The notes beneath the pieces were generated by a model that was given only the letters and a program-made list of their open reading frames with translations, was not told the DNA's origin and searched no databases. From a virus (lineage: Duplodnaviria > Heunggongvirae > Uroviricota > Caudoviricetes): DNA of 64,000 nt. The position numbers were made by a program, and so were the translations under genes. The stretch is taken from positions 55,799 through 119,798 of the IMG/VR virus record IMGVR_UViG_3300031994_000001. The stretch is one strand, 5' to 3'. Position 1 is the stretch's first letter. Each line of letters starts with the position of its first letter. This document shows positions 191 through 39,510 of this stretch, piece after piece.

Positions 191-796
191 TTAATAGTTC
201 TTTACCAATCTTACCGTGAGAGCGTGTACCGATGTTGTCGGTGCAGTCACCTGCGCGTTTCTGTTGTAGTTGCTTCTTCCGCAGTTGAATGCGTGCGCTC
301 TTTCATATTCGCCGCTTCCGAATGATTTGTTTCCGAGCCAAAATGAGAATGTGTCTCCGTCTTCGTATGGGAATCCGCAGTAGTAGCATCCCCAAAGCAA
401 CCCGCTCAAACCGTATTTGTCAGAACCTCCGTTTTCCATTGAAATCCAAAGGTCTGAATCGCGACCATAAGTGTCCAACAACGAAGTTATTTCCTCAACT
501 GTTGGGAGATGCCATCCGTTTGGTATTATATCCAAAGCCGTGTCGAACTTGTAGAACATCCGTAAATCTTTGTCGGTGTGTTCCATAAAGTAATCCCTTC
601 TTTCTTTGTACTTTGAATTTGGCTGAATGCAAAGGTTTTCGGCAGTCCAATATAAACCACCTATTTTCACAATTTTTCCGAGAAGCCCGTTTTCATAGGT
701 TTCGATTTCCTGCTTTACACACTTTCCGAGCCTTTCTTTTGTGACGGGCTGTATGTTGAGTTTTTCGTTGAATTGCTGTGCGTTCAGTATCTCCAT
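191..796 (-). CDS. Leader-family protein with FISUMP (Fibrobacter succinogenes major paralogous)-like domain
   Basis: Starts MEILNAQQFNEKLNIQPVTKERL; then VKIGGLYWTAENL, IPNGWHLPTVEE, GGSDKYGLSGLLWG and FW motifs typical of FISUMP domains. Confidence 0.75.
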   Translation of the reverse strand: MEILNAQQFNEKLNIQPVTKERLGKCVKQEIETYENGLLGKIVKIGGLYWTAENLCIQPNSKYKERRDYFMEHTDKDLRMFYKFDTALDIIPNGWHLPTVEEITSLLDTYGRDSDLWISMENGGSDKYGLSGLLWGCYYCGFPYEDGDTFSFWLGNKSFGSGEYERAHAFNCGRSNYNRNAQVTAPTTSVHALTVRLVKNY

Positions 797-834
797 TTCG
801 TTGCTGTTTTCTATATTGTATATTTATCTTTCAG

Positions 835-1899
835 TTACCAAAACAGTGTTGTTTTATCAACGGGTTCAACACTGTCGGGTGTTTCATCCAATCTTTTATC
901 CAATCTTTTATCCAATGCTTTATATTTCGGTCTGACCCATATTTTGACAGAATCCTTGAACGGGGGATTTTTGAAGTAATCCTTTTTCAAAGGCTGCTTT
1001 ATGTTCGGGTTGCGAATAATCATATACAAGTCTAACGGTTTCAGCCATTTACTTTCAGCCCGTTTATCAGTCAGAGCATTGTCATAATGTTTCAGTCTGT
1101 TATAACTGAAAAGGTTGTTTCGTCTGCCCGTAATACGGGACGCTTCCTCTCGGTCTTTGTTGTATAGTATGAGTACACCGTCCTCAATCCAAGATTTGTC
1201 TTTTTTGTCATTTTCGTCAATTCCAACCAAAAGCATTTCCTCATAGTTGTACTTGAAATAATCTTCGGCTGTCACAAACACATAGCAAACGTGTCTCCTG
1301 CCGTCTCTTGTGCAACCAAACACAATGTCACCCGTCTGAAGCCTCTCTTTTGGAGGTACGGATTCGTTAAACAGTCGTTCCTTGCTGACGGGTTGTATGT
1401 TGAGTTTTTCTTCAACAGCATTGCCTTTATAATTAAAAACCATTTTCGCTTTCGAATTTGGAAATGTTTTGAAATATTCTACATCCAATGGTTTTTCTAA
1501 AAGTGGCACTCTGTAAACATACATAACCCTATTATTAAGATTGTTGTCATATTTAACAACAAAATGCCTTGTGAAAACGGGTTTTCCGCCGCGACCAGTA
1601 ACCCCAGACAAATAAAAAATGAATATTCCGTCACGCAACGCACTATCTTTTTCATTTGAAATGGGTTCGTCAAGCAATTCATCATACGCACCGCTTTTTA
1701 CGTCATCGTATGATACAAACACTCCATTTTCTTTTTCGTTTTCATCGCCAACAACAACAATATCACCCGTTATGAAATTATTTCTCATTTCAGATGGAGT
1801 TTTATACATTTTACATTTTGTAAAATCAGTAAGTCTGTCTTTTGTGATTGGCTGTATATTGAGTTTTTCGTTAAATTTCTTTGTATCAAGTATTTCCAT
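835..1899 (-). CDS. Leader-family protein with two tandem 'TGDI' domains separated by an internal leader copy
   Basis: Start moved to MEILDTKKFNEKLNIQPITKDRL (1899); internal AVEEKLNIQPVSKERL. Confidence 0.8.
   Translation of the reverse strand: MEILDTKKFNEKLNIQPITKDRLTDFTKCKMYKTPSEMRNNFITGDIVVVGDENEKENGVFVSYDDVKSGAYDELLDEPISNEKDSALRDGIFIFYLSGVTGRGGKPVFTRHFVVKYDNNLNNRVMYVYRVPLLEKPLDVEYFKTFPNSKAKMVFNYKGNAVEEKLNIQPVSKERLFNESVPPKERLQTGDIVFGCTRDGRRHVCYVFVTAEDYFKYNYEEMLLVGIDENDKKDKSWIEDGVLILYNKDREEASRITGRRNNLFSYNRLKHYDNALTDKRAESKWLKPLDLYMIIRNPNIKQPLKKDYFKNPPFKDSVKIWVRPKYKALDKRLDKRLDETPDSVEPVDKTTLFW
886..915. repeat. 12-bp in-frame tandem duplication (ATCCAATCTTTT x2.5) encoding LDKRLDKRLD
   Basis: Read directly from sequence. 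Confidence 0.85.
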
Positions 1900-1900
1900 A

Positions 1901-2359
1901 TTATATTTTTCTTTTCCAAATGATGTCTGACGAATCAAACGGTGGGTTGATGAAATAATCTTTGGTCATAGGCTGCGGCAGTTCTTTCGGTCTGTATATA
2001 ATGTCAATGCGCTGTTTGATAGTGTCCATTCTGTTGAGGTTGTCGTCATACCGTTCAAGCAAAAGGTAAATACATCTGCTGTAATAATGCGGGTCTTTGC
2101 GTATAAGCGCACCGTCTTCGCTTATCGGCAATCCGCCGCCTTCCAATCCGAGCAGTTTTGCACAGTCGTTTTCTCTGTATCCGTCTTCGGACATAAAGAC
2201 ATAATGTCGTGAAGAACCATCGTGCCTTGTGACAAGAACAATGTCCCAATCTCGCAACTGTTCCTTCAACGTGTAGGGCTTTGTATTGTGAAGCCTCTCC
2301 TTGCTGACTGGTTGTATGTTGAGTTTTTCGTTGAACTGCTTTGTGTCAAGTATTTTCAT
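1901..2359 (-). CDS. Leader-family protein, single TGDI-type domain
   Basis: MKILDTKQFNEKLNIQPVSKERL; DWDIVLV, DGALI, DNL, ends DYFINPP..IIWKRK like paralogues. Confidence 0.8.
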   Translation of the reverse strand: MKILDTKQFNEKLNIQPVSKERLHNTKPYTLKEQLRDWDIVLVTRHDGSSRHYVFMSEDGYRENDCAKLLGLEGGGLPISEDGALIRKDPHYYSRCIYLLLERYDDNLNRMDTIKQRIDIIYRPKELPQPMTKDYFINPPFDSSDIIWKRKI

Positions 2360-3288
2360 AATCCGTCTCTTTTCCAAATGATTTCCGCTTCTTCCGTTGG
2401 CGGGTCTAAAACATAATCCGCGTCAATTTTATCGGGTTTTTCTTTCGGACGGAGAATTTGTTTTACCGCAAATTGTTTACCCAAAGATGAACTGCCGCTG
2501 ATTTTGGTGTCAAGGTTGTCATTGTATCGGTATGCTTTTGTATATTTTGGCACGTTTCTGTTGATGCTTGCATCATATTCCATACGGATAAAAATGCCTT
2601 CGTTTTTGAAAAAAGATAAGTCTGATACAAGGTCGAACATTGTGATATATCTTTTCAATTCGTCAAACGGAATGTAAACATATTCAAGCCCGTTGTCAAT
2701 CAGCAATATGTCGCCGAACTTGAGCCTCCGTTTTGGAGGCAGTGTTGCGTTGTGCGCCTTTGCCAACATTTCCTTTGTGACGGGTTGTATGTCAAGTTTC
2801 TCGTCAATATGTTTTTCCTTGTAATTCCAAATTTGTTTCGCTTTCGGATTCGGGAATGTTTTAAGGTAATCTTCCGTCAACGGATTTTTCAAAAAAGGAA
2901 CTCTGTAAACATACATAACTTTGTGCGTACCAATGCCTTCGTATTCGAGTTCGTCATTGAAATCCTTTACATAACTTCTTGTAAAAAACGATTGTTCCCA
3001 ATACACAAACACGCCGTCAACACAATTGACGATTTCCGATTCACTTGTCAATTTTGGGAAGAAATGCGTGATTTCGTCATATACACCGCTTTTCACGTCT
3101 TTGTAAGATATGTATGTTCCGTGCAGGTTTTCTTTCTCGTTACCCACAACAACGATGTCACCCGTTTGAAAATTGGCACGCATTTCGCTTGCTGTCGGAT
3201 ACGGTACAACAAGTTTTTTCAGTCTGTCCGCTGTGACGGGTTGTATGTTAAGTTTTTCGTTGAACTGTTTTGTATCAAGTATTTCCAT
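2356..3288 (-). CDS. Leader-family protein, two TGDI-type domains with internal leader copy
   Basis: MEILDTKQFNEKLNIQPVTADRL; internal HIDEKLDIQPVTKEML. Confidence 0.8.
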   Translation of the reverse strand: MEILDTKQFNEKLNIQPVTADRLKKLVVPYPTASEMRANFQTGDIVVVGNEKENLHGTYISYKDVKSGVYDEITHFFPKLTSESEIVNCVDGVFVYWEQSFFTRSYVKDFNDELEYEGIGTHKVMYVYRVPFLKNPLTEDYLKTFPNPKAKQIWNYKEKHIDEKLDIQPVTKEMLAKAHNATLPPKRRLKFGDILLIDNGLEYVYIPFDELKRYITMFDLVSDLSFFKNEGIFIRMEYDASINRNVPKYTKAYRYNDNLDTKISGSSSLGKQFAVKQILRPKEKPDKIDADYVLDPPTEEAEIIWKRDGL

Positions 3289-3290
3289 AA

Positions 3291-3776
3291 TCAGTCTCTT
3301 TTCCAAATTGTTTTTGCCTTTCGTATCGAAGCGTCTTTGAAATAATCCTCGGTAAGAGGCAGGCTTACGTGCGGGTTACGCATAACCGCCCAAATGCCAT
3401 ATTTCTTGCCGCGCATTAGGTTTGAATCCAACTCCGCGAGGTTTGTGCGGGTGAAGTGGGGGTTGTCGTTGACAATGAACATAGGTTTCGCGTCATAGAA
3501 AATGAACATTCCCTCCTTGTAGAATTTCGTTTTCCAAAGAGGAATGTTAAATCCGAAATATTTGTCGTACAACTCCTTTTCGATGTCGCTTTTTGATATG
3601 AACACACCCAAATGCTTGTGGTCTATGTGACCCATAATGGCAATGTCTCCCGTAAGAAAATTGGCACGCATTTCACTTGCTGTTGCATACGGAATAACTC
3701 GGCTTTTCAGTCTGTCTTTTGTGACGGGCTGAATGTTCAGTTTCTCGTTTAATTGTTCTGTATTCAATATTTTCAT
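3291..3776 (-). CDS. Leader-family protein, single TGDI-type domain
   Basis: MKILNTEQLNEKLNIQPVTKDRL; SEMRANFLTGDI. Confidence 0.8.
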   Translation of the reverse strand: MKILNTEQLNEKLNIQPVTKDRLKSRVIPYATASEMRANFLTGDIAIMGHIDHKHLGVFISKSDIEKELYDKYFGFNIPLWKTKFYKEGMFIFYDAKPMFIVNDNPHFTRTNLAELDSNLMRGKKYGIWAVMRNPHVSLPLTEDYFKDASIRKAKTIWKRD

Positions 3777-4378
3777 AAGTCTCTGCAAAATCTTACTGTC
3801 ATCATTTCCTCTTTTTCGGCGTTCTCATCCCACATACTTCCGTGTTCATTGTTGCCACCGTGTGAAATTGGGGCAAGCAGGTGCATTTTGTGCGGTTTTG
3901 GAACTTTTGCGTTTGCTATACCGCCGATGAATGTCGTATATGTCTTGTAAACCATAAAGTCGGCATACCTGCCTTCGCCGAGTATGTGACCTTTGTAGTA
4001 TATGCCAACAAGTTTGGCGTTGAACCCCGATTCGTTTGTTCCGCCGTATTCAGTCGCTATAAGAGGCAGGAAGTTGTCATCTTCCATTGCTGCATAAAGG
4101 TCATCCGTGTCTTTGACTGACGGGACACGCCAACCTTTAGGCGCGATTTTGGTTGCGGCTCTCTGTGTGTAATAATACTCGCCGTCAACGACATTGTAGT
4201 CAACGCCATCCACCAATTCATATCCGTCTGCCGTAACAGTTGTGGCGGCGTTCCGTACAGTCCAATAACGGTTGCCGATTTTCACATAGTTTTGTCGTTT
4301 GATATTTGACAGACGTGATTTGGAAACGGGTTGTATGTTCAATTTCTCGGTGAACTGTTGTGCGTTGAGTATTTCCAT
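3773..4378 (-). CDS. Leader-family protein with FISUMP-like domain
   Basis: MEILNAQQFTEKLNIQPVSKSRL; VKIGNRYWTVRN, APKGWRVPS, GGTNESGFNAKLVG, VRFCRD. Confidence 0.75.
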   Translation of the reverse strand: MEILNAQQFTEKLNIQPVSKSRLSNIKRQNYVKIGNRYWTVRNAATTVTADGYELVDGVDYNVVDGEYYYTQRAATKIAPKGWRVPSVKDTDDLYAAMEDDNFLPLIATEYGGTNESGFNAKLVGIYYKGHILGEGRYADFMVYKTYTTFIGGIANAKVPKPHKMHLLAPISHGGNNEHGSMWDENAEKEEMMTVRFCRDL

Positions 4379-4382: not shown

Positions 4383-5042
4383 TTAAATTTTATCCCAAAC
4401 AAAAATGAACAGTTGCAGGAAACACACAACCTCCATAAAGAATATCCAAGCCTTGTTGTCAACGTCAACGGAGTAGTCGGGGTTGTACGCGCCTGGGGTG
4501 TTCACCCCTATCAATATGAACATAACATAGGACAGAACCATACTTGCAATGGCGACAACGCTTGTGATGCACAGATAGACCGTTACGAGTGTTATCGTAA
4601 CAAGTGAACTGATGTAGTGTATCGGTCTCGCCCAACCGTATTGCAGGAACACGCTCGGTTTGAATTTCTCCAACAGTTCCTTTATGAACTCCTTGAATGA
4701 CTTTTTGACAGCGGGTTTCTCGGTGTCGAATCGCACTTCGGGAACGTAGTTGTCGCCGCCGTCACGCTTCGGTCCAGACTTGTAGCGGCAACTAACACCA
4801 ATCATAACCATACACAAGACAACCACTATCGGAATCCAACAGAGGTTTTTTGGTGAGATTGTGAACCACCAAAAACCGAATGGTATAGCCGTCAGTGAAC
4901 ACCACGCACTGAAAAGCCAATCCCACTTGTTTGGCAGCAGGTAGTATGTCTCTGATATTGATACGGGAACTCCGTATTTGAAAAGAATGAAGATTATGTA
5001 TGCAAAGCACAGCACAATCGAAATAATAGGCAAACTAATCAT
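4383..5042 (-). CDS. Multi-pass membrane protein
   Basis: Several hydrophobic segments; SISETYYLL and HY motifs. Confidence 0.65.
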   Translation of the reverse strand: MISLPIISIVLCFAYIIFILFKYGVPVSISETYYLLPNKWDWLFSAWCSLTAIPFGFWWFTISPKNLCWIPIVVVLCMVMIGVSCRYKSGPKRDGGDNYVPEVRFDTEKPAVKKSFKEFIKELLEKFKPSVFLQYGWARPIHYISSLVTITLVTVYLCITSVVAIASMVLSYVMFILIGVNTPGAYNPDYSVDVDNKAWIFFMEVVCFLQLFIFVWDKI

Positions 5043-5070: not shown

Positions 5071-5481
5071 CTATTCTTTTTTGATAATGAGCGTCATAGC
5101 CAAGTTCGGTGTTATCTTGTCGTCAAGTACGCCATCGAATATGTCAAGCATAGCGTTCCATACGGGCAGCATCATTTCATTCTCCCCGAATTGGAAAGGC
5201 AGGTGTGCCTTTATCATACCGCTCAATATATTGCTGAACCTGCCCGATTCCGATTCCGATTCGACAATTTCGTTGAGCAGATTGAGTTCATTTTCGGTCA
5301 GCCTTATCTTCAGACGAGTGTTTGTCATACTGCCGAAAAACGGGCTTTTCAGTTTTGACAGTTTTCTGTACAGTTTCTGTTTCACCATATCTCTTGTGCC
5401 GCCGACAGAACGCAGTCTGTCCGCGCTGACGGGTTGGATGTTCAGTTTTTCGTTGAATTGTTCTGTGTTCAGTATTTTCAT
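5071..5481 (-). CDS. Leader-family protein, unknown helical cargo
   Basis: MKILNTEQFNEKLNIQPVSADRL; cargo related to 5483-5908 (KL..SKL, IRL.LTE.EL..(L/F)N.I). Confidence 0.75.
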   Translation of the reverse strand: MKILNTEQFNEKLNIQPVSADRLRSVGGTRDMVKQKLYRKLSKLKSPFFGSMTNTRLKIRLTENELNLLNEIVESESESGRFSNILSGMIKAHLPFQFGENEMMLPVWNAMLDIFDGVLDDKITPNLAMTLIIKKE

Positions 5482-5482: not shown

Positions 5483-5908
5483 TTATACTATATCTATTAA
5501 AAGTATTGTTTTAAGCGGGTTGCAGTTTTTTAAGAAATCATACCATACGCCGAATTGGAAATAAATTGCGGTTATTGTCACAGAATTTAGTTCGTTCAGC
5601 CCTTTTATGAACGGTATGGTGTCTTGCAGTTTTTGGTATGTTAGCGTGTCCGTCAGTGCGTTTTTCTTGACCTCATACATTATGTTGTTGAATGCGTCAA
5701 GTTCTTCCTCCGTCAGATACAGCCGTATGCAGTGTCTGTATTTACCGTTTTGGCTTTCGTGAAACTGTGTCGGTTCGAGTTTGGACGAAGCCAATTTCCG
5801 TTTCAGTGACCTTTCGGTAACATCCAAATTCTTCAACCTATCAGCCGTGACGGGTTGAATGTTCAGTTTTTCCTGCACAAGAAACTGCTCAATAGTTAAA
5901 ACTTCCAT
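5483..5908 (-). CDS. Leader-family protein, unknown helical cargo
   Basis: Start moved to MEVLTIEQFLVQEKLNIQPVTADRL; upstream part of the track ORF is intergenic. Confidence 0.7.
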   Translation of the reverse strand: MEVLTIEQFLVQEKLNIQPVTADRLKNLDVTERSLKRKLASSKLEPTQFHESQNGKYRHCIRLYLTEEELDAFNNIMYEVKKNALTDTLTYQKLQDTIPFIKGLNELNSVTITAIYFQFGVWYDFLKNCNPLKTILLIDIV

Positions 5909-6127
5909 CTTATAACATTGTGTTGCAATATTTATAATAAGTCCGCCGATACGGGGGTTGTTCGGTTTTTCGGCAATCTTTTCGAAATCCTGCGAAAAAC
6001 CGCCAAGCGGGTATAAAACAAAAAAACTTGCATAAAAACCAAAAATGCGCACAAACGCTTGTGTATCAACTGATTGGGCGCGTTTTTGAAAAACTGAAAA
6101 ATGTAGAAAACCCCGAAAAACCGCTGA

Positions 6128-6135: not shown

Positions 6136-6223
6136 TATTGAGCAAAAACACAAATAGTCTGTTAAGTTATAGAAGAAAAGAACTTTCACTGACTGTGCTT
6201 AATCAAAAATATTATTAAAAACA

Positions 6224-8020
6224 ATGTATTACAATTCTATTAATGAATCACAAGTCCTCGCTACTTGGGGACAGCACATTAAGGAGAGTTTGGGCATTAA
6301 CGATGAAAGCAAGTTGGCTTGGATGTCAAAATATGCTTATATGCACGATTTGCACGACAAGAAAATGCTTAACGAGTCTGTTGACGGTCACGCCCATTTG
6401 AATCCTAATATGACAATCGGCGGTATGGGTGCTATTCAGTTCCCAGGTGCTGCTACAAACAACACTTACGACCGTTCTCTCGCAGGCAGCGGTGATAATG
6501 TTTACAGCGTGCTTCCTCTTGCTCTGCAAGTAGCCGCTCAAACCATCGCTCTTGACCTCGTTCCCGTTGTTCCTATGCAGGGACCTCACGGACTGTTGCA
6601 ATACCTTGACTATGTTTACGAAGGTGGTCGTCTCCACAACCAAGGTGGTAGCATCTACACAAGCGTAAACAACGAGAACTACGCATCACCTTATATGATT
6701 AAGGCTATGCTGTTCAATGTCACCGAAGGCAACGGCAGCGATGCTGAAAAGCACATTTTCCGTCCAAACGCTAAATACGTTTTGACCGAAGACGGCGAAG
6801 TTATGGAAGACTTCGATTTGACTTACATCTATCCTAACCGTATTGACGGTAAGCCTCTCTTCCGCGTGATTGAGAAATCACACTACAACGGACAGAAGAT
6901 GGTTGGCGGAGAAAATGCAAGCACTCCTATCTACCGTATCTTCGAGAACTTGAAAACCACAGAGAACCCAAGCGGTATCTACGGTATCAAGTGCATCGGC
7001 AACGGTTCTGACGACATCGAACTTACTGTTGAGTCAAGTAAGGGAACTGAAGAAGTCCGTGCTTTTGAAGACCACATCACTTCATTCAGCGGCGAAGGCT
7101 TCTTGAAAGACACCGTTACTTCAAACAACCCTTACACAAGGGAAATGGGCGAAGCAACCCCAGGTCGTAAAATCGGTTTGAAATCTTACACTTTGGATGT
7201 TAAGGCTACAACCTTCCAAGTTGATTCTGCCATCACTCGTGAGCAAGTTCAAGACTTGAAGCAATTCGGTATTGACGCTGTGGCTCAAGCAGAGGCTGCA
7301 TTGGTGAACGAACTCACCCAATGTATCAACAAGGTCATCCTTGAAAAGATGTTCAACCTCGGCGCACTCAACGCTAAACAACTCGAAGAAGTTGAAGGCT
7401 TCAACCAAGTTTCCGCTTGGTTCACCAACGGCACTCCTACTGCAACTACCAAAGAAATTTGGTTGGGTGACAAGTATGACAAAGAAGGTGAATTGGTCGG
7501 CAAAATCACAACCAAAGTTCCTTACACTAACGTAACGGGCGGCGGCGAAGTGATGGGTACTGTCCAAAGACGTGTGATGACTAAAATCATCGCTGCTTCC
7601 AACATCATCGCAGTTCGTGGTCGTAGAGGTGCAGGTACTTTCGCTGTCGTAAGCGGAACTATCGGAACAGCACTCCAAGACTGCGCAGGATTCGTTCCTT
7701 ATCCATTGAGCAACACCATTTCCGCTAACGGAAACAGCCTTTACCCAATCGGTGCATTGGCAGGCATCAGCATCTATGTTGACCCCAATATGGCATTCAA
7801 CGACACCCGCGTTTGCGTTGGTCGTAAGGGTAAAGAAAACGAGCCAGGCATCGTGTTTATGCCTTACTTGATGGCTGACAAAGTTGAAACCACTTCAGAG
7901 TTCACAATGGCTCCAGTCATTTCTCTGAAATCTCGTTTCGCAGTTGTTGAGGCGGGTATCTACCCACAAACTCAATACTACACCTTCGGCATCAAACTCG
8001 ATGGTGTGAGCCTCGTGTAA
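6224..8020 (+). CDS. gp23: Major capsid protein, T4 gp23-like
   Basis: AAQTIALDLVPVVPMQGPHGLLQYL, QVQDLKQFGIDA, ELTQCINKVI, IVFMPY, PVISLKSRFA match the gp23 family. Confidence 0.93.
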   Translation: MYYNSINESQVLATWGQHIKESLGINDESKLAWMSKYAYMHDLHDKKMLNESVDGHAHLNPNMTIGGMGAIQFPGAATNNTYDRSLAGSGDNVYSVLPLALQVAAQTIALDLVPVVPMQGPHGLLQYLDYVYEGGRLHNQGGSIYTSVNNENYASPYMIKAMLFNVTEGNGSDAEKHIFRPNAKYVLTEDGEVMEDFDLTYIYPNRIDGKPLFRVIEKSHYNGQKMVGGENASTPIYRIFENLKTTENPSGIYGIKCIGNGSDDIELTVESSKGTEEVRAFEDHITSFSGEGFLKDTVTSNNPYTREMGEATPGRKIGLKSYTLDVKATTFQVDSAITREQVQDLKQFGIDAVAQAEAALVNELTQCINKVILEKMFNLGALNAKQLEEVEGFNQVSAWFTNGTPTATTKEIWLGDKYDKEGELVGKITTKVPYTNVTGGGEVMGTVQRRVMTKIIAASNIIAVRGRRGAGTFAVVSGTIGTALQDCAGFVPYPLSNTISANGNSLYPIGALAGISIYVDPNMAFNDTRVCVGRKGKENEPGIVFMPYLMADKVETTSEFTMAPVISLKSRFAVVEAGIYPQTQYYTFGIKLDGVSLV

Positions 8021-8039
8021 CCCTTAATTGGGATAACCC

Positions 8040-8071
8040 AAAAAGGAGTTGAGCAATCAACTCCTTTTTTT
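8040..8071 (+). terminator. Rho-independent terminator after capsid gene
   Basis: AAAAGGAGTTGA-GCAA-TCAACTCCTTTT hairpin plus T run. Confidence 0.9.
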
Positions 8072-8088
8072 GTTTATTGCAGTTAGGT

Positions 8089-31080: not shown

Positions 31081-31143
31081 ATCCTATTGTTTATGTGTGT
31101 TGCTGTCTTTTGTTACCGCTATGGAGAGACCGTACAACAAAAT

Positions 31144-31443: not shown

Positions 31444-31465
31444 AATATTTATAATTTTAAGTTAT

Positions 31466-31720
31466 TTAATAATCATAATCTGCCATCACGATGCTTCTAT
31501 TATAATGCTTATGCTTCTCGTGAACTTTATTCAATACATCTTTTCCACGTTGCTCAAGCAATGCTTCATTCTCGTCTGTTGATTTAAGGTTTTTTCTGCA
31601 AATCTTATACAAGTTTTTGTAGTACTTCATATCGTTTCCCCACAGAACCCATCCAAGAAGCACACCCAATCCGATGCAACCGAGCATCACTAAAATTATT
31701 ATAAGGAATCCGTCTATCAT
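31466..31720 (-). CDS. Small membrane-anchored protein
   Basis: N-terminal TM helix then coiled coil. Confidence 0.6.
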   Translation of the reverse strand: MIDGFLIIILVMLGCIGLGVLLGWVLWGNDMKYYKNLYKICRKNLKSTDENEALLEQRGKDVLNKVHEKHKHYNRSIVMADYDY

Positions 31721-31795
31721 AATTGTTATGTTTTAGTTATTTTCTTCATTTATTCTTTTTTCTTCTCTCGGCACTTCGTTTACCCTTCGGTCTTG

Positions 31796-32221
31796 CTAAA
31801 ACATATCATCAAGTGAATTTATATATGAACTTTCACCGTATTTTTTGATAAGTTCCTTTTCGTCCTTGCCGTGATAATACGATTTCTCGTTATATATGTG
31901 GAGACGCTTGTTTTTCAATTCAACATATCTAAAGACAAATTCTTCAACAAGCACATTGTCATAGACAATATCCCCGTCATCGTCCTCAAAATAAGTACGT
32001 GTTGGTTTCCCAACAAAATCTTTGTAAAAAATCAACGCAATTTCCTTACCCTTGTATGATATTTTTTTAACAAGAACACCTTCAGAGTCAAAACTATCAA
32101 ACTCTCTACAATATGTAATCCTAATGTTTATCATAAATTTAACGTTTACAAGACCAAATGGGATAATTCCGATTAAATTTTCATAAGTTTCATTTGCTGC
32201 AAGAATTTGTATGCGAGACAT
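31796..32221 (-). CDS. Hypothetical protein (AT-rich)
   Basis: ORF in operon orientation. Confidence 0.5.
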   Translation of the reverse strand: MSRIQILAANETYENLIGIIPFGLVNVKFMINIRITYCREFDSFDSEGVLVKKISYKGKEIALIFYKDFVGKPTRTYFEDDDGDIVYDNVLVEEFVFRYVELKNKRLHIYNEKSYYHGKDEKELIKKYGESSYINSLDDMF

Positions 32222-32364
32222 TTCACGCTGCTGAAATCCCTAAATTCAAGGTATTTTTCGCACATCAGTTTGCCTGCGATTTCCTTAATGTGCTCGCAGT
32301 TTCCACAGCACGGGTACTTCGTGCCGTAGGTTTCCAAATTATATTTTTCTTGTTGTACTGTCAT
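32173..32364 (-). CDS. Small Cys-rich protein
   Basis: CCGNCEH...C...C. Confidence 0.55.
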   Translation of the reverse strand: MTVQQEKYNLETYGTKYPCCGNCEHIKEIAGKLMCEKYLEFRDFSSVKCLAYKFLQQMKLMKI

Positions 32365-32366
32365 AA

Positions 32367-32615
32367 TTATTCCTCTATATTTTCTTTTTTAGCCCAACTA
32401 AAATCAAGGTTGATTGTGTTCCACACATATTTCATAAACCAATCTGGGAATCTTCCGTATATTATAAGGTCAAATCTAAAAATCCACCAAATGAATGTGA
32501 TTGTCGGTTGTGAATATGTCACACTGACATAAAGAGATGGGAGGATATGCAAGTCGCCCCAATGACTCATATTGATGAATCTGAACTTAATCTTTGGAAA
32601 AAGTTTTCTTTTCAT
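32367..32615 (-). CDS. Hypothetical aromatic-rich protein
   Basis: ORF in operon orientation. Confidence 0.5.
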   Translation of the reverse strand: MKRKLFPKIKFRFINMSHWGDLHILPSLYVSVTYSQPTITFIWWIFRFDLIIYGRFPDWFMKYVWNTINLDFSWAKKENIEE

Positions 32616-32815
32616 ACCGCATTCTTCCTCTATATGTTGCTTGGCTTATACAGTCCTATGAACTTGTGCGGTTTGTCCTTTGTGTTGCCGAACAGTTTGC
32701 CGATGTCCTCACACCAACAAGTCGTTTCAAATCTGAATTTCCGCCAATTGAACCAAATAAATTGGCAATGTCCTTTTTCGTTGAATCTGATTATTTTCAT
32801 ATTATCTTATGTTAT

Positions 32816-33157
32816 TTAATGTTCATAATAGTATTCCCCGTTTGGCAGCATACGTTCCTCAACGGGTTCGGTTCCGCGTTCAGCGGTTATGCTGCCGCAC
32901 ATAACAAGGTCGAACACTTTGTTGTCATCCTCCGCTGTCTTGATGAGGTTGCCGAGTTCAGATTCCCCGTCAAGAAACGATTGCCTTTCTTCCGCCGAAA
33001 CCTGTGAACCTATTGCAAGCAAATCGCCTTCCTCGGTAATGTCGTACACAAGGCAGACATAATCGTTGCCATCCGTGTCTGTGACGGTGAACAGTTGCGG
33101 CGCGTCATACCAAACGAGCATTTTGCTGACTGAAAGTTGCATCTTTTCCATAGCCAA
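32816..33157 (-). CDS. Hypothetical protein
   Basis: LVWYDAPQLF...YVCL pattern. Confidence 0.65.
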   Translation of the reverse strand: MAMEKMQLSVSKMLVWYDAPQLFTVTDTDGNDYVCLVYDITEEGDLLAIGSQVSAEERQSFLDGESELGNLIKTAEDDNKVFDLVMCGSITAERGTEPVEERMLPNGEYYYEH

Positions 33158-33161
33158 AGTG

Positions 33162-33371
33162 TTATAATTTAAGACCCGAAAACTTGTCGAACTTTATTGT
33201 TATTATGTCGAAACATTCGATTTTAGTCACTTTGCCGAACTCCTCCATAGTCTCGAATGAAATCTGCTCGCCTTTGTCAATCAACGGTTTCCATCTTTGC
33301 CAAAAGAAGTTTCTGACATAGACATAGTACCTGCCGTTTGGCTTTCTTTCAAGTTTCGCTTTTCCTTTCAT
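33162..33371 (-). CDS. Hypothetical protein
   Basis: Translationally coupled ORF. Confidence 0.55.
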   Translation of the reverse strand: MKGKAKLERKPNGRYYVYVRNFFWQRWKPLIDKGEQISFETMEEFGKVTKIECFDIITIKFDKFSGLKL

Positions 33372-33763
33372 ATCCCTTTTATATTTGTGTACATATCATC
33401 GGGGGCTTCCAAGGCGAGACCCTTTTCTATCAGTCCACGGTAGTCAATGTGGATTGAGTTCAGATAGTCAAGTTTCTTTGCCATAATGTTGCCAACGGTG
33501 TCGTTGTTGAAACTGTTGTATTTTTCCGTTTCTTCTTTTGTCGCCGATGTCAGCGGTCGCAGATACAGCCGTATGTCTTCTATGTCCAGGTCATCATTGT
33601 TCTCACCGCAGACCAAGTTGTCGCAGGTGTTCACAATACACAAATAGTCGTCAAAAGGTTCATACTCTCCATCGGAAAACGGTGATTCCCAATGGAATGT
33701 CGGGTTGTACGGCAACCTCGCGCAGAGGTCTTCAATCATAAGTTTCAAATGGTCGCTTCTCAT
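33368..33763 (-). CDS. Family-B paralogue
   Basis: DLCARLPY, LYLRPL, DYLNSIHIDYRGLIEKGLALEAP. Confidence 0.8.
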   Translation of the reverse strand: MRSDHLKLMIEDLCARLPYNPTFHWESPFSDGEYEPFDDYLCIVNTCDNLVCGENNDDLDIEDIRLYLRPLTSATKEETEKYNSFNNDTVGNIMAKKLDYLNSIHIDYRGLIEKGLALEAPDDMYTNIKGI

Positions 33764-34287
33764 TGTTGTTGGTTTTTTGTTACATACATATCGTAATAGC
33801 ATTTTGACATTTTCAGACCGATGTTGGTCGTGGATTGAATATACTTCACGGCGTGAGGCCAGTCCATTGCGCTAACTTCCTTGAACTGTTCCTCCGTCAG
33901 CAATTCTTTCGGCAGTTCCTCCTTCAGCATTTCATCCAATTCCTCCATTGTCATATCATACATACCTTCGGGGGCTTCAATTGCCAATCCTCTTTCAATG
34001 AGGTGGTTTATGTCATAATGGTTTTCAATGAGGTATCGCATATTGTCAGATACCGTCTTGAAAGTTTCCCATCGGTAACATTCCATACCGTTCTCGTTGA
34101 ACTTGCGCAGGTACGGCTTGATGTGGTATATGTCCATACCGACAAGCAGTTTGTGGGCGTTATAAACGTTCAGCACAATATCCACGTCATCACCGTTCTT
34201 GTGGTAATGCGCGTACTTCACTTTCGGGTTGTACGGCAACCTCGCACAGAGGTCTTTAACCAATAATTGTTTTTCTTCCCGTGTCAT
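33760..34287 (-). CDS. Family-B paralogue with C-terminal extension
   Basis: KQLLVKDLCARLPY, KPYLRK, GLAIEAPEGMY, then ~60-aa extra domain. Confidence 0.8.
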   Translation of the reverse strand: MTREEKQLLVKDLCARLPYNPKVKYAHYHKNGDDVDIVLNVYNAHKLLVGMDIYHIKPYLRKFNENGMECYRWETFKTVSDNMRYLIENHYDINHLIERGLAIEAPEGMYDMTMEELDEMLKEELPKELLTEEQFKEVSAMDWPHAVKYIQSTTNIGLKMSKCYYDMYVTKNQQQ

Positions 34288-34290
34288 ATC

Positions 34291-34647
34291 TTATACAATT
34301 CCTTTTTGTTGTAAATACTCGGTTAGTTTAAGGCACGATGCAACCGATGGTCCCATTTCATCATCGTCATAACAGTAGGCTTCGTCACACAATGTACTCC
34401 AACCAATATCGCCCTTTATATAATTGTTCATTGCTTCGGTAATTGCGGTATAGTATTCCTTTTTTTCCTCGGCATCACTCTCGTTAAGCGATAGGTCAAT
34501 GTTAAAAAGGAAAATGTTGCGGTAGATGTGGCAGGCTTCTTTTACTGTTAAATCACGCTTCATCTGTAACCCATACATATACGGATTTTTCTCCGACCTA
34601 CGAAACGCAACGACTGGGTTAAGTTTTATTCTTCTTTTAAGTTCCAT
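34291..34647 (-). CDS. Hypothetical protein
   Basis: ORF in operon. Confidence 0.6.
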   Translation of the reverse strand: MELKRRIKLNPVVAFRRSEKNPYMYGLQMKRDLTVKEACHIYRNIFLFNIDLSLNESDAEEKKEYYTAITEAMNNYIKGDIGWSTLCDEAYCYDDDEMGPSVASCLKLTEYLQQKGIV

Positions 34648-34650
34648 AAC

Positions 34651-35451
34651 TTAATCATTTTTATACATTCCTTCGGGGGCTTCCACGGCGAGACCTTTTT
34701 CTATAAGACCCGCTGTGTCAAAATGTTTCTTGGCAAACCAATCCTGCACCTTTTTCATATCCGCTATTTTTATCATACAGTCGTAATGGCTCGGTGTGAC
34801 TTGTTGGTAGTTTACTATTGAGATGGATTCCGAGATATTGTCAAACTCTTTGGCTTCATCGTCTGTCATAGTTGTAAGAGGGCGCAGATAAGGTCTGACT
34901 TCATCAAGGTCAAGGTGGGCGACAGTGACTGTGTTGCATTTCATTACGCCGTTCTTTGTGAATACAAGTTCAAGTTTGGAATCGAAATTCGGGTGTTTTA
35001 CGATATTCATCATCAGACCGTATGGAAGACTGGCGCACATTTCAGAAAACATAAGTTGTTTCTCGCTGTCGGAAAGACCGCATTCTATGTTGTACAATTC
35101 ATCGGAAGCCTCTTGCGCCAACCCCATTTCAATCAGACCGTTGTAGTCGAAATGATGGGAAAGCAGCCAATGCGACAGTTCCATAAGATAATCCATAGAT
35201 TTGCCTTCAGTCCAAAGGTTGTTGTACTTTCCGCGCAGAGCGTCATATTCCTCACGCTCTTTATTTGTCATTTTTGACATACTGCGCAGCATCGGCTTGC
35301 AGGCTTCAATCGGGTGGCTTCCGTTGATAGTCATATCGTTTCCCTCAACAGAAAACACCTCGCAAATGTCCGCCCCGCAGTTCACCATAACGTGATACGG
35401 CATACGGGCGCACAGAACATTGTATAGCAGTTTCAAGTATTTTGTTTCCAT
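34651..35451 (-). CDS. Family-B paralogue with two tandem domains
   Basis: LCARMPY..KPMLRS..HHFDYNGLI, then MCASLPY..RPYLRPL..HFDTAGLIEKGLAVEAPEGMY. Confidence 0.8.
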   Translation of the reverse strand: METKYLKLLYNVLCARMPYHVMVNCGADICEVFSVEGNDMTINGSHPIEACKPMLRSMSKMTNKEREEYDALRGKYNNLWTEGKSMDYLMELSHWLLSHHFDYNGLIEMGLAQEASDELYNIECGLSDSEKQLMFSEMCASLPYGLMMNIVKHPNFDSKLELVFTKNGVMKCNTVTVAHLDLDEVRPYLRPLTTMTDDEAKEFDNISESISIVNYQQVTPSHYDCMIKIADMKKVQDWFAKKHFDTAGLIEKGLAVEAPEGMYKND

Positions 35452-35455
35452 ATTC

Positions 35456-35779
35456 TTAACGGGGGTTTTGTGATTTGTGATAAATTTCGTTGCCGTTTTG
35501 CTTCCATAGATTGACAACTATGATTGGGTTTCTGTCAATCTGCGATGACATAAGATATGTGCCTTCAACATAGGAATCGTCCGATTCAACGATACATTTA
35601 TCACCCTCTTTGAACGCCTTTTGAAACATCGCTGTGCGTCCGTTAAATTTTTGGTCGAACATAGCAAGCACATATTTCTGCCCGTTGTTTGTCGGGACTT
35701 CCCTTATTTTACCGTGTGCGGAATAGGATAGGGTTGCCAAGGCGTTGTCCTTTTCGCCATAAATGACTGTCGTTTTCAT
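35456..35779 (-). CDS. Hypothetical protein
   Basis: ORF in operon. Confidence 0.55.
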   Translation of the reverse strand: MKTTVIYGEKDNALATLSYSAHGKIREVPTNNGQKYVLAMFDQKFNGRTAMFQKAFKEGDKCIVESDDSYVEGTYLMSSQIDRNPIIVVNLWKQNGNEIYHKSQNPR

Positions 35780-36252
35780 ATTGCTCTATTTTTTGTTTGA
35801 TACATTTCTTCGGGTGCTTCGATTGCCAACCCTTTCCCGATGAGACCACGGTAGTCGAAGTGGTGTGCGTTGAAAAAATCCTGCATTTTGCTCGGCAGTT
35901 TTTCTTCCAACTGTATGGGTTCAAGCAGTTCATCGTTTCTGAACGAAAAATCGTGGATTTCTTGCAGGCAACCGTTCAGTTCGCGTTCTTCTTCCTCGGT
36001 TATTGAACGGATAGAACGCAGGTACGGGCGGACATTCTGCATAGAGTGAACCGTGGTCAAACCAGCCCCGTCAAAGTACAGTTCAAAGTCGGTCATTTCA
36101 TCATTGAGGAAAACAGCCCCGCTGAACACGGCATCGCGCCAACCGAAACAAACATCGTCCACTCGGTATATGGAACATTTCACACCGTGGCGCAACCGCC
36201 CGCAAAGGTCGTCAAAAAGCAACCGCTTTTCTTCCAATAGCATTGTCTCCAT
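35776..36252 (-). CDS. Family-B paralogue
   Basis: DLCGRLRHG, RPYLRS, HHFDYRGLIGKGLAIEAPEEMY. Confidence 0.8.
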   Translation of the reverse strand: METMLLEEKRLLFDDLCGRLRHGVKCSIYRVDDVCFGWRDAVFSGAVFLNDEMTDFELYFDGAGLTTVHSMQNVRPYLRSIRSITEEEERELNGCLQEIHDFSFRNDELLEPIQLEEKLPSKMQDFFNAHHFDYRGLIGKGLAIEAPEEMYQTKNRAI

Positions 36253-36255
36253 TTG

Positions 36256-36915
36256 TCAAAATTTTTCAAAGTTATACATCCCTTCCTCCGCTTCGAGAGC
36301 CAAGCCATTTTCGATAAGCCCGCTGTAATCGAAGTGGTGCTTGTTCAAAAAATCCACGTTCTTTATTCCGTAGTAGCCTTTGGAAAAATAATCAAAGTCC
36401 AAGTCCTGCCCAATCTCACCAAGGAACGGGTCGTGCGATATCGTGTACCAACTGCCGTCAGCCTTTTTGTATGGAACGCCGCCCAACATTATGGCGGCTG
36501 CATCGTACAGTTCGCTGTCGGTAATGCTTGACAGCGGGCGCAGGTACGGTTTGACAACATCGTTTGTCCATTCGTCTGTTGCGACATTTCTGTGATAGGC
36601 TATGAGCGGGTAAACAAAGTCATTGGTTGAACATATAACTTTGCCGAACTCTCGGCTGTTGTCAACCCCACTGTAAACGATTCCGAATGCATCAGTGATA
36701 CTCAAGTTGTAATCGTTCTCGTAACGCAGGTATTCCCGTTTACGCTCATTCTCCTTTATGGAAACACCGAACAATGTCACGGTCAGTTGGGTTTCACCGC
36801 CGAGGTTAGCCTTTATTCCGTATGGAATCCCTGCATATATGCGTTTTATATATTCGTGCAGGAGTTCGTCCGAAATCATACCATCGTATGTGGTCTTTGA
36901 TTCTTTCTTTTCCAT
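36256..36915 (-). CDS. Family-B paralogue (long central insert)
   Basis: AGIPYG, KPYLRPLSSIT, HHFDYSGLIENGLALEAEEGMY. Confidence 0.8.
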   Translation of the reverse strand: MEKKESKTTYDGMISDELLHEYIKRIYAGIPYGIKANLGGETQLTVTLFGVSIKENERKREYLRYENDYNLSITDAFGIVYSGVDNSREFGKVICSTNDFVYPLIAYHRNVATDEWTNDVVKPYLRPLSSITDSELYDAAAIMLGGVPYKKADGSWYTISHDPFLGEIGQDLDFDYFSKGYYGIKNVDFLNKHHFDYSGLIENGLALEAEEGMYNFEKF

Positions 36916-36920
36916 AGTCG

Positions 36921-37151
36921 TCAGATTGTAAATTCTTCGACAAACACGCCGTACTCTTTCTCCATTTCAGCCTTGTGTTCGGCTGCACGCTGCTTGGCTT
37001 CCTCAATGGTGTCGGTGAAATTGAAATCTTGGAAACGGCAGTATGCCTCCTTTTCCCAAATCACACGCTCCCATTTGATTCCGCTGTTGTCGTAATCATT
37101 CTTGAACCAAACCGAATATCCTTTGTCTGTTTTTAAGATTCTGTATGTCAT
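36921..37151 (-). CDS. Small hypothetical protein
   Basis: ORF in operon. Confidence 0.6.
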   Translation of the reverse strand: MTYRILKTDKGYSVWFKNDYDNSGIKWERVIWEKEAYCRFQDFNFTDTIEEAKQRAAEHKAEMEKEYGVFVEEFTI

Positions 37152-37161
37152 TGCTTTCGAT

Positions 37162-37677
37162 TTATAGGATTGTCACATATTTCGGGTCAACATACTCGGT
37201 GAGCCACACACCGTTGTTGCTGAAGTAGAACTTTATTCCGTCAGCAGACATACGACCCGTGTCAACTGACAGCACAACGGGTTTACCGTGTCGCTTGCCG
37301 ACCTCAACGGCGGTAGCCTCCGTGTCTGACAGATGCACATAAAGACGAGAGCCTTTCAGTATGCCCTGCTCCATAATGGAATCAACGAATCTATCGGCTG
37401 TTCCGTGGTACAGCGTCTTGGGAGGGATTTTCTCGGTGAGACCCACATCAACCTTGACACTGTGACCCTGCCGTGCGCGGATATGGAGTCCGTCCTCCGA
37501 GAACTCGTACCGTTTCTTGTTGTTGGTTTCCACTATTTCTTTGAGTTCCTGCATAGTGTAGCCGTGGTTCACGATGAGGTCTTCAATCGTGCGCCAACCG
37601 CCTTCCTCGAACTTGTATGACGTGTCGTGCCGCAGCAGATACGCCAACTCTTTTCCTCTTTCTACAATGTCTTTCAT
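37162..37677 (-). CDS. kptA: RNA 2'-phosphotransferase (Tpt1/KptA)
   Basis: LAYLLRH, GGW, KKRY, IRARQGHS, TLYHGT, RLYVHLS catalytic motifs. Confidence 0.93.
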   Translation of the reverse strand: MKDIVERGKELAYLLRHDTSYKFEEGGWRTIEDLIVNHGYTMQELKEIVETNNKKRYEFSEDGLHIRARQGHSVKVDVGLTEKIPPKTLYHGTADRFVDSIMEQGILKGSRLYVHLSDTEATAVEVGKRHGKPVVLSVDTGRMSADGIKFYFSNNGVWLTEYVDPKYVTIL

Positions 37678-37683
37678 TTTTCT

Positions 37684-37779
37684 TTATTTTTTCGTTTGTT
37701 TCTCATTCCGTTGTAATACAGAACAACCATTAATGTTCAGTTTTTCACCTATATATTGGTTTGTGTCAAGTATTTTCAT
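37684..37779 (-). CDS. 31-aa leader-only mini-ORF (MKILDTNQYIGEKLNINGCSVLQRNEKQTKK), possibly a remnant
   Basis: Manually translated; below ORF-track cutoff. Confidence 0.6.
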   Translation of the reverse strand: MKILDTNQYIGEKLNINGCSVLQRNEKQTKK

Positions 37780-37785
37780 AGTTTG

Positions 37786-38424
37786 TCAATGTCTGAAATC
37801 TGGTTGAAGCTCTTCCTCATATTGCATTGGGCAGTTTTTGAATATGTCGTGGCGATGCCACACATTCCCAACCGACCATCGGGATAGGTCGCCTTTAAAT
37901 CTTGAATCGCAAAACATATACGACATTTTCGTAACGCAAGACACATTCCAGTTGGAAATGTCGCCGTTGAAATCCGAATTTTGGAACATATTCTCCATAT
38001 TTAAAACTTTCCCGACATTCCATTTTGATATGTCGCCATCAAAGTATGAATTGTAAAACATATATGACATATTTGTAACATTGCCCACATTCCAGTTGGA
38101 AATGTCGCCGTTGAATTTTGAGCTTTGGAACATACCAGTCATATTTTTCGCATTTCTGACATTCCATTCAGATATGTTTCCATCAAAATCCTTTAATGTG
38201 GAAATGAAAAACAAATATGAGAAGTTCGTTATGCAAGAAACATCAATGTCGTTCAAGTTGCAAAAAAAGCCATATTCTTCAATGTGGTTTTCTATGCAAA
38301 TAATCAGTTCGCCTTTTGTTTTTGGCTTGTATTTGTATGGGGACAGCGCAGCAAGCCTCGTTTTTGTAACTGGCTTGATGTTGAGCTTCTCGTTTATATA
38401 TCGGTCGGCATTAAGTATAAGCAT
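37786..38424 (-). CDS. Leader-family protein with DUF285/BspA-like repeats
   Basis: MLILNADRYINEKLNIKPVTKTRL; FxGDISxWNVxxVxNMxxMF repeats. Confidence 0.85.
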   Translation of the reverse strand: MLILNADRYINEKLNIKPVTKTRLAALSPYKYKPKTKGELIICIENHIEEYGFFCNLNDIDVSCITNFSYLFFISTLKDFDGNISEWNVRNAKNMTGMFQSSKFNGDISNWNVGNVTNMSYMFYNSYFDGDISKWNVGKVLNMENMFQNSDFNGDISNWNVSCVTKMSYMFCDSRFKGDLSRWSVGNVWHRHDIFKNCPMQYEEELQPDFRH

Positions 38425-38433
38425 AATTCAATT

Positions 38434-39510
38434 TTATTTTAAGAACTTACCTTTTATCCAACTTGGTTTTTCTTTTGGCAAAACAAGGTTTGGATTGTAT
38501 AAGCAGCAAAAAGTTCCGTCAACTTCTTGTGGTGCGCCGTCAAGTGATACCATTTTTTTATTGTTTTCACAATAAAAGCTGCCATAAACTTTTGTTGGTG
38601 AGCCTTCGAGAGTGGTCAAATTATTATCATAACAATAAAAATCCCCACGGATTTCTTGAGGTGCGCCTTTTAATGTTGTTAATTTATTTCTTTTACAATC
38701 AAAATCCCCACCGACTTTTTGCGGTGCGCCTTCAAGTGTGGTCAATACATTACTGCTGCAATCAAAATTCCCACCGACTTCATTTGGTGCTCCTTCAAGT
38801 GAAGTCAGTCTATTGATACGGCAATTAAAATCTCCTCCAACTTTTTGCGGTGCGCCTATAAGAGATGTCAAATCGTTAAAACTGCAATTAAATTTTCCTC
38901 CGACTTTTTGCGGTGCGCCTTCAAGCGAAGCTATGTTGTTGTCGCCGCAACCAAAATTTCTACCAACCACCTTCGGTGCGCCTTCAAGCGAAGCCAATTT
39001 GTTTTGATAGCAATAAAAATTCCCACCGACTTTTTGTGGTGCTCCTTCAAGGGTGGTCAAATTATTGCCACTGCAATCAAAATCTCTTCCGACTTCTTGC
39101 GGTGCTCCTTCAAGCGAGGTCAGTTTATTTTTCACACAATAAAACCCACCACCGATTTTCTTTGGTGCACCTTTAAGTGTTATTAATGAATTGTTTGTAC
39201 AATCAAAATCTCCACCCACTTCATATGGCGCACCGTCAAGTGTGGTAAGTTCATTGTCCATACAGTAAAAACAGCCGCTAACTTTTCCGAATTTTATTTT
39301 TAATTTTCCGTTGGCAACTATGTCTTTTGGCACATATACATTGCCATTGCAGTCATAGCATTTTGTGGTTTTATCTAATACCAACTTATTGTATTCTATA
39401 AATTGATTTATTGTAACAGCAGATAATTTTTTATCACCACGTGCAGATTTTGTTATTTGCTTGATATTATAATTATTGTTTTTGAAATCGTTGAATTTAA
39501 GTATTTTCAT
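38434..39510 (-). CDS. LRR-like protein (~12 repeats) with degenerate leader
   Basis: MKILKFNDFKNNNYNIKQITK; same N-cap and LVLPKEKPSWIKG C-cap; TATAAATA at 39536-39543 (minus). Confidence 0.85.
   Translation of the reverse strand: MKILKFNDFKNNNYNIKQITKSARGDKKLSAVTINQFIEYNKLVLDKTTKCYDCNGNVYVPKDIVANGKLKIKFGKVSGCFYCMDNELTTLDGAPYEVGGDFDCTNNSLITLKGAPKKIGGGFYCVKNKLTSLEGAPQEVGRDFDCSGNNLTTLEGAPQKVGGNFYCYQNKLASLEGAPKVVGRNFGCGDNNIASLEGAPQKVGGKFNCSFNDLTSLIGAPQKVGGDFNCRINRLTSLEGAPNEVGGNFDCSSNVLTTLEGAPQKVGGDFDCKRNKLTTLKGAPQEIRGDFYCYDNNLTTLEGSPTKVYGSFYCENNKKMVSLDGAPQEVDGTFCCLYNPNLVLPKEKPSWIKGKFLK

Follow-up and report, generated by a model that had tools for sequence, protein, structure and literature searches.

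A 64,000-nucleotide (nt) stretch of DNA from an uncultured, T4-related jumbo phage of the ruminant gut (positions 55,799 to 119,798 of the 413,021-bp IMG/VR record IMGVR_UViG_3300031994_000001; hereafter, the window) carries a short peptide tag, about 25 residues in full length, at the start of gene after gene. On balance, we favor the view that this tag is a capsid-loading and processing tag like that of phage T4, and that it has been expanded in this genome to serve about 70 cargo modules; the sequence of the tag and that of the phage's head proteins both point this way. When the window was scanned in all six frames for E-K-L-N-I-(Q/K)-P-(V/I)-(S/T), 19 intact copies were found, 16 of them N-terminal and 3 internal (at ~1407, ~2799, and ~17024), and there is 1 degenerate N-terminal copy besides. 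An earlier note, made from the letters alone, had claimed 17 tagged genes with hydrophobic-x-Glu before KLN. Both claims held: the 17 are the 16 intact N-terminal tags and the degenerate copy at 38434-39510, all at the right coordinates, and hydrophobic-x-Glu precedes KLN in every intact copy. Across the whole 413-kb genome we count ~68 copies on ~58 genes (52 of the copies intact and N-terminal), and the tagged genes account for 9.7% of its length (40 kb). The reversed pattern matches nothing in five related records; the real pattern matches 14 to 74 times in those three of them that bear the tag.

The tag consists of two parts. Part A is M-(K/E)-I-L-x4-(Y/F)-(I/V)-x-E, and part B, K-L-N-I-(Q/K)-P-V-(S/T)-K-(D/E)-R-L, is nearly invariant. 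We number residues from the boundary, such that P1 is the Glu before part B and P1′ is the first residue of part B (Lys); an arrow marks a putative cut. The two parts are separable, each occurring alone in this genome. Part A alone begins other genes, as in MEIYKFEQFIAE↓SAK and MKILSLDQFIAE↓GAG, with small residues after the Glu, and two leaders in the genome end in Q-F-I-A-E. Part B is found inside genes in 13 copies; aliphatic-x-Glu precedes 12 of these, and the rest of part A precedes none. The internal copies sit at the boundaries of cargo modules, with up to four modules per protein. A side observation is that an AAA_5/MoxR-like ATPase of 476 residues (genome 5645-7075, plus strand, locus L063) has a part-A-like start, MKILNTKDYESELLEG, and no part B.

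The difference between N-terminal and internal copies is consistent with what is known of T4. The T4 capsid-targeting sequence (CTS), MKTYQEFIAE (PMC8442874), is found on IPI, IPII, IPIII, and Alt and is removed by gp21 at L/I-x-E (Mullaney & Black 1996, via PMC9026906). Within it, residues 4 and 7 (P7 and P4) control targeting and residues 8 and 10 (P3 and P1) control processing (PMC9026906). In public data, 145 of 188 tag copies start at residue 1. P1 is Glu in all 188. At P3, 142 of the 145 N-terminal copies have an aliphatic or aromatic residue, and 37 of the 43 internal ones an aliphatic residue. At P4, however, Tyr or Phe is found in 103/145 of the N-terminal copies versus 3/43 of the internal ones (Fisher p = 1.5e-14), so that the upstream aromatic residue (targeting) parts from P3 and P1 (processing) just as in T4 genetics. 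The likeness extends to the general design, a short N-terminal leader on unrelated small proteins that ends in aliphatic-x-Glu; some leaders here even end in F-I-A-E. The two have M-(K/E)-x-(hydrophobic)...(F/Y)-(I/V)-x-E in common, a segment too short for a significance test.

Given a common 5′ end on so many genes, one might ask whether the unit under selection is DNA, a recombination cassette at which genes are converted or cargo is shuffled, the encoded peptide having no function of its own. Various cargoes are indeed shuffled behind the same 5′ sequence, and some multi-module genes have mixed cargo. The conserved residues are nevertheless written with many synonymous codons (six for Leu P2′, five for Arg P11′, four for Val P7′), which implies selection on the peptide and largely refutes a cassette. 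Amino acid conservation also holds across 207 protein clusters from many samples, and one relative (G001) has a co-ordinated variant peptide, E-R-M-K-I-R-P-V-T-N-A-E. Codon usage thus indicates that the tag is conserved as a peptide and not through DNA homogenization, and we regard a cassette as very improbable.

The tag is predicted to be a flexible appendage outside the cargo folds. The Pfam FISUMP and DUF285 domains begin downstream of it. In an AlphaFold2 model of the protein encoded at 8587-9120 (TGDI cargo), tag residues 1 to 30 have predicted local distance difference test (pLDDT) values of 51 to 63, compared to 89 to 97 for the cargo. In a model of the two-module protein encoded at 2356-3288, two domains are predicted with confidence, and the low-confidence linker between them, residues 156 to 180, corresponds to the internal tag (predicted template modeling score, 0.46).

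The head genes of this phage contain the machinery that such a tag would need. One T4-type S77 prohead protease is encoded (genome 292434-292781; PF03420, E = 7e-14, above the cut-off; phrog_207, E = 9e-34), within an open reading frame (ORF) that fuses the protease to a scaffold-like region (genome 290916-292859, minus strand, locus L076). The Tenacibaculum phage PTm1 has the same fusion, annotated "prohead core scaffolding protein and protease." The scaffold region contains 12 tandem 14-residue repeats, H-x-D-Y-L-A-E-(Q/K)-L-x-x-x-x-x, and has 5.4 (L/I/V)-x-E motifs per 100 residues versus 1.64 genome-wide (Poisson p = 3e-9). A search for homologues of the protease-scaffold protein returned 5,353 in all, of which 120 were listed and compared. 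In these 120 the repeats read Y-L-A-E-(N/Q/K)-(L/V/M), a class-for-class match to the tag junction, Y-(I/V)-(N/S)-E-K-L. When a hidden Markov model of the scaffold repeat was run against the proteome, tag N-termini were among the top non-self matches, in register, at E values of 0.18 to 3.

Similar motifs recur elsewhere in the head proteins. The protease has a conserved LLIIE11↓R close to its N-terminus and, past the protease domain, an RVNE↓(S/A/N/Q)(Y/F) site in 111 of the 120 listed homologues; T4 gp21 has LIE-9 and is processed at its termini (PMC9026906). The T4-type major capsid protein (6224-8020, plus strand) has candidate sites at SINE↓S (residue 8), HIKE↓S (residue 21), and MLNE↓S (residue 51), the first and last of which had been pointed out before; HIKE↓S is an addition. 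The site at about residue 51, (L/I/M)-x-E↓S, is kept in relatives down to 31% identity (IINE↓S in PTm1). In T4, the N-terminal propeptide of gp23 is removed by gp21 (PMC5694885). We infer from the motifs that the scaffold repeats, the protease ends, and the capsid protein near residue 51 contain candidate protease sites. A complex predicted for the tag and the protease domain (34 and 215 residues, respectively) gave no verdict and is not used either way.

The tagged genes are also placed, and may be controlled, as structural genes are. As claimed in the earlier note, the clusters neighbor the genes for the capsid protein, tail tube (17686-18282), and portal (21381-23075). The box TATAAATA occurs 111 times genome-wide versus ~37 expected, a three-fold excess, with 62 copies 0 to 60 nt upstream of a start codon; box-headed genes include those for the tail tube, portal, and protease-scaffold protein and a sheath-like gene. 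In the window there are 21 matches versus 5.6 expected. All five tag clusters are box-headed, the one at 23104 by CATAAATA at 23092, and in every cluster the box lies 13 to 26 nt upstream of the first gene, as boxes also do before structural genes. The boxes reported previously at 8089, 15311, and 39536 (minus strand) and CATAAATA at 23092 were all recovered, along with others at 5929-5936 (minus strand) and 6128. The S77 protease, scaffold, capsid protein, and portal, with TATAAATA boxes upstream, make a set like that of T4, and by analogy the boxes may be late promoters.

The box at 6128 belongs to the capsid gene, which resembles a discrete transcription unit running to an intrinsic-terminator hairpin at 8043-8072; the 8089 box, opening the next tag cluster, comes after this hairpin. 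Contigs from RNA libraries in three ruminant metatranscriptome studies span ~6157-8071 at high depth.

This arrangement bears on another possibility, in which the tag has a role in the cell and none in the virion, as a chaperone handle, a mark for a modifying enzyme, an export route, or a means of timed degradation. That part B is clade specific and that most cargo has no recognizable family would both suit such a role. In four metatranscriptome runs the capsid gene is covered deeply and the tag genes thinly, which might seem to suit it as well, but contig depth cannot rank genes or timing and is unusable for this purpose. Late-promoter-like boxes common to tag and structural genes, and the interleaving of the clusters with the capsid, portal, and tail tube genes, argue for a different conclusion, as do the T4-CTS-like part A and the recurrence of the protease-type motif in head proteins. 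The tag is moreover hydrophilic, with no signal-peptide character. We therefore consider an in-cell role quite unlikely.

Thus, the proposal of the earlier note, a T4-like leader with a prohead protease site on unrelated cargo, now has beside it an S77 protease-scaffold protein, conserved aliphatic-x-Glu in the protease and capsid protein, the boxes, a tag outside the folds, and a contrast between N-terminal and internal copies that mirrors T4 CTS genetics; we take it to be probable in this form. We imagine that the tagged proteins are produced late and that part A, like the T4 CTS, would dock each polypeptide, be it one module or a string of them, on the prohead protease-scaffold core. The S77 protease would then cleave after the invariant Glu, in the N-terminal tag as well as at each junction between modules, taking off part A and dividing multi-module proteins into single modules of ~15 to 30 kDa. 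Each released module would begin KLNIQPV and be retained in the head with the DNA. More speculatively, small modules and slender solenoids might leave through the portal and tail at infection, possibly still folded; exit while folded, through a channel of ~30 Å, has been proposed for T4 IPI (PMC9026906). Exit of small folded modules would give a reason for splitting precursors into single modules.

That leaves the function of part B. Since a polypeptide has a single part A and every module has its own part B, the latter might act in prime-side recognition by the protease and as a spacer, or it might serve after the cut, for example in retention, docking, or ejection. One can envision a two-address system, in which part A loads the protein and is discarded, while KLNIQPVTKDRL, exposed as the new N-terminus, is a second signal for ordered threading or ejection via the tail, for docking to the inner capsid or the DNA end, or for timed turnover in the host. 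We put this forward tentatively and think it possible, if on the doubtful side. The earlier note had named KLNIQPVTKDRL as a new post-cleavage signal; its separability from the T4-like part and its confinement to a narrow clade are now evident, and a signaling role is a reasonable hypothesis. If the two-address system is real, the delivery tag would be readable from sequence, and an uncultured clade's complete injected proteome could be listed.

A number of findings weigh against a loading and processing tag. The most conserved segment of the tag follows the putative cut, unlike in T4, and P1′ is Lys in the tag versus Ser, Ala, or Gly after the part-A-only leaders and the capsid sites. Part B alone occurs at four N-termini in the genome, with neither part A nor the cleavage motif; this implies that part B also does something that does not depend on loading by part A. 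The resemblance between scaffold repeat and tag is not significant alone (best E, 0.18). Two close relatives, G003 and G004, have the protease repeats and no tag, so that the repeats are not a receptor specific for part B. We found no co-variation of part B with the protease or scaffold: G001, with its variant part B, and the tag-less G004 both keep the DYLAE repeats. Searches of GenBank phages found no cultured phage with the tag, and thus no virion proteome applies. Finally, the identifiable cargo (LRR-like, DUF285, and FISUMP; LRR, leucine-rich repeat) is of a kind usual on cell or virion surfaces.

The cargo deserves a closer look for this reason. We count at least 26 unrelated clusters of cargo in this genome, and public representatives supply no fewer than 35. 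Among the genome's modules, TGDI (22), LRR-like (17), and FISUMP (8) are the largest families, followed by ~20 further clusters, mostly singletons, and some multi-module proteins combine TGDI and FISUMP cargo. The earlier description of the cargoes as unrelated was borne out, with Pfam matches for FISUMP (PF09603) and DUF285 (PF03382, E = 7e-42), an LRR-like solenoid of 22-residue repeats, a TGDI alpha/beta fold, and a pair of paralogues (5071-5481 and 5483-5908) described there as helical. The LRR-like unit is L-(T/E)-(T/S)-L-E-G-A-P-x-x-V-G-G-x-F-x-C-x-x-N-x (at 15335-17626, 23104-24384, and 38434-39510); units are present in varying number between N- and C-terminal caps that stay constant, and the C-terminal cap ends NPNLVLPKEKPSWIKG. 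On the other hand, the suggestion that the cargo comprises "day-zero anti-defence effectors" found no support, as what can be identified is binder- or adhesin-like repeats and small folds, not recognizable enzymes or inhibitors.

The TGDI family has a confident predicted alpha/beta fold, for which Foldseek against PDB and AlphaFold clusters gave no convincing match. A wide VIA-align search was likewise unconvincing (best Z, 4.6, with scattered NlpC/P60-like rows), and an active peptidase seems unlikely, the family having no conserved Cys or His. The sole match in an ESM Atlas feature search (0.76) was an unnamed viral cluster; phmmer against PDB sequences gave nothing useful for a TGDI protein, or for the capsid protein, and a word-based homologue search with a TGDI protein matched only itself. 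Among 122 tagged representatives, Pfam gave one match to a MafB19-like deaminase, whose motif was not found by pattern, and one to a pentapeptide repeat; neither is used here. The median isoelectric point of the mature modules is 8.0 versus 6.0 for the proteome, which is weakly like that of T4's internal proteins and not decisive.

Cargo of this kind suggests the strongest rival explanation, that part B and the Glu before it form a strand that docks adhesin-like modules on the exterior of the capsid or tail, with multi-module proteins remaining as multivalent, uncut strings. Binder- or adhesin-type repeats (LRR-like, DUF285, and the lectin-like FISUMP) would be at home there, and the four genes with part B and no part A are in keeping with it. 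Some Klebsiella phages have secondary receptor-binding proteins with short conserved N-terminal anchor peptides, which attach variable binding modules to a virion structure in a similar way; those proteins differ in that they are trimeric tail spikes whose genes, one or two in a genome, belong to the tail module, and in having no protease-type motif. A part-B-like N-terminus also adjoins a fibre gene in the window. This is a 59-residue ORF (57469-57648, minus strand) whose start, MNIKPITKEQLKRL, lacks both part A and the Glu. The ORF and the stop of gene 57645-58703 overlap, and immediately downstream is a tail-fibre-like gene for a collagen-like protein of 1,023 residues with GVQ repeats (54347-57418). 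Fibre-like capsid appendages are, in addition, borne by the distant cultured relatives PTm1 and PTm5 (PMC13282480). Surface docking, however, would leave the T4-CTS-like part A unexplained, as well as the fact that a polypeptide needs it just once. Nor would it explain why Glu is invariant and P3 aliphatic at each junction, or why the motif recurs in the scaffold, protease ends, and capsid N-terminus. The modules are also small and without the coiled coils or collagen repeats of fibres. We judge it unlikely, while recognizing that the cargo would suit it. If a loading and processing tag is correct, the binder cargo would mean that phages inject repeat-protein binders; otherwise, a T4-like leader may have been re-used for surface display.

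The distribution of the tag suggests a recent origin for part B. A profile of the tag, run against 1.84 billion representative proteins, matched 207 clusters at E ≤ 0.001, of which 51 reach E ≤ 1e-10; ten representatives that were looked up are all metagenomic "hypothetical proteins." Three IMG/VR relatives carry the tag: G002 (192 kb) with 74 copies, G005 (106 kb) with 14, and G001 (122 kb) with 14 pattern matches and 20 profile matches at E ≤ 0.001. G003 (75 kb) and G004 (124 kb) have capsid proteins 80% identical to that of this phage and no tag; in G004 the three large cargo families are all absent. The profile had no match in LR756500.1 (capsid protein 44% identical) or PTm1 (31%), and tblastn with a tagged protein had none in GenBank phages. 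Absence from close relatives and from the nearest GenBank records argues that part B is a recent, clade-restricted addition that then underwent explosive expansion. Part-A-like leaders are older than part B. The phage itself is present in sheep, goat, and bovine gut metagenomes from about ten studies. Its capsid protein resembles that of Lak phages, which makes Prevotella, among the ruminal Bacteroidota, a tentative lead to the host.

Modular loading of unrelated proteins into a T4-type head by a short cleavable leader is already established (PMC9026906). Compared to T4, there are ~70 modules per genome here, versus ~4; a near-invariant 12-residue segment with no T4 counterpart follows the leader; P1′ is Lys; and internal copies would yield multi-module precursors. 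The cargo is mostly repeat or binder domains, whereas that of T4 is small basic proteins. The giant phages phiKZ, 201phi2-1, and SPN3US process their head and ejection proteins and have families of head-protein paralogues (PMC5694885, PMC10052503, PMC9026906), including one of 20 members in SPN3US (PMC9026906, PMC5694885). In those phages a gp21-related protease cleaves many head-packed proteins after Glu, in some cases yielding several fragments. Their propeptides, however, are long (>100 residues), with an S/A/G-x-E motif and no common short tag, whereas one near-identical short tag on unrelated cargo makes membership readable from sequence here. Phage P1 packages its Dar (defence against restriction) proteins in the head (PMC9024508, PMC12810830). 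If the tag loads heads, the two systems would be alike in that accessory proteins are loaded during capsid assembly and delivered with the DNA, but P1, from an unrelated lineage, uses protein-protein hierarchies (DarA, Hdf) and no common cleavable peptide.

A literature search found no paper with the tag sequence or with expanded CTS-like leaders in huge phages. What is new is the scale, with ~70 modules to a genome and 207 clusters in public data; a two-part design in which an invariant dodecapeptide follows the Glu; the multi-module precursors with what appear to be processing-only junctions; and the binder-type cargo. If a loading and processing tag is correct, nearly 10% of a 413-kb genome would be head-packaged cargo recognizable by sequence alone, and a widespread clade of ruminant-gut phages without a cultured member would have a ready list of candidates for delivery by the virion. 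The T4 capsid-loading principle would then extend to dozens of cargo types and to precursors cut into modules, and part B would be a new conserved peptide.

Within the window, the first tag cluster lies on the minus strand. Its first gene, 5483-5908 (141 residues), follows the box at 5929-5936, and next comes its paralogue with small cargo, 5071-5481 (136 residues). Beyond these are genes for FISUMP cargo (3773-4378, 201 residues), TGDI cargo (3291-3776, 161 residues), a two-module TGDI + TGDI protein (2356-3288, 310 residues, with an internal HIDE↓KLDIQPVTKEML at ~2760-2810), TGDI cargo (1901-2359, 152 residues), a second TGDI + TGDI protein (835-1899, 354 residues, with an internal AVEE↓KLNIQPVSKERL at ~1370-1420), and FISUMP cargo (191-796, 201 residues). 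An untagged predicted membrane protein (MISLPIISIVLCFAYIIFILFKYG...; 4383-5042, minus strand) splits this cluster and is also kept in a tag-less relative (L004:908-1573).

The next three clusters are on the plus strand. Behind the 8089 box are three TGDI genes, 8111-8584 (157 residues), 8587-9120 (177 residues, the protein modeled above), and 9122-9631 (169 residues). The 15311 box is followed by an LRR-like solenoid of 22-residue repeats (15335-16195, 286 residues) and a two-module LRR-like + LRR-like protein (16199-17626, 475 residues), in which the internal junction is PITE↓KLNIKPVSKDRL at ~17012-17060. Two LRR-like genes, 23104-23679 (191 residues) and 23683-24384 (233 residues), follow CATAAATA. 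The fifth cluster, on the minus strand, opens from TATAAATA at 39536-39543 with the LRR-like gene 38434-39510 (358 residues), whose degenerate tag, MKILKFNDFKNNNYNIKQITKSARG, is without the P1 Glu and the P6′ Pro, and continues with a gene for DUF285 cargo (37786-38424, 212 residues).

Other common N-termini occur in this phage and its relatives. A second expanded family of small paralogous genes, at 29836-43761 in the window, has a "DLC(A/G)RLPYGV" motif close to the N-terminus; in one relative (L023:9779-11143) an N-terminus of this type is fused directly to a V-T-E↓KLNISPVTKERL junction. The tag-less G004 (loci L049-L055, e.g., 105408-124105) has at least 20 small genes that start M-R-(I/L)-T-(D/E)-S, a different common N-terminus on a family of tandem paralogues.

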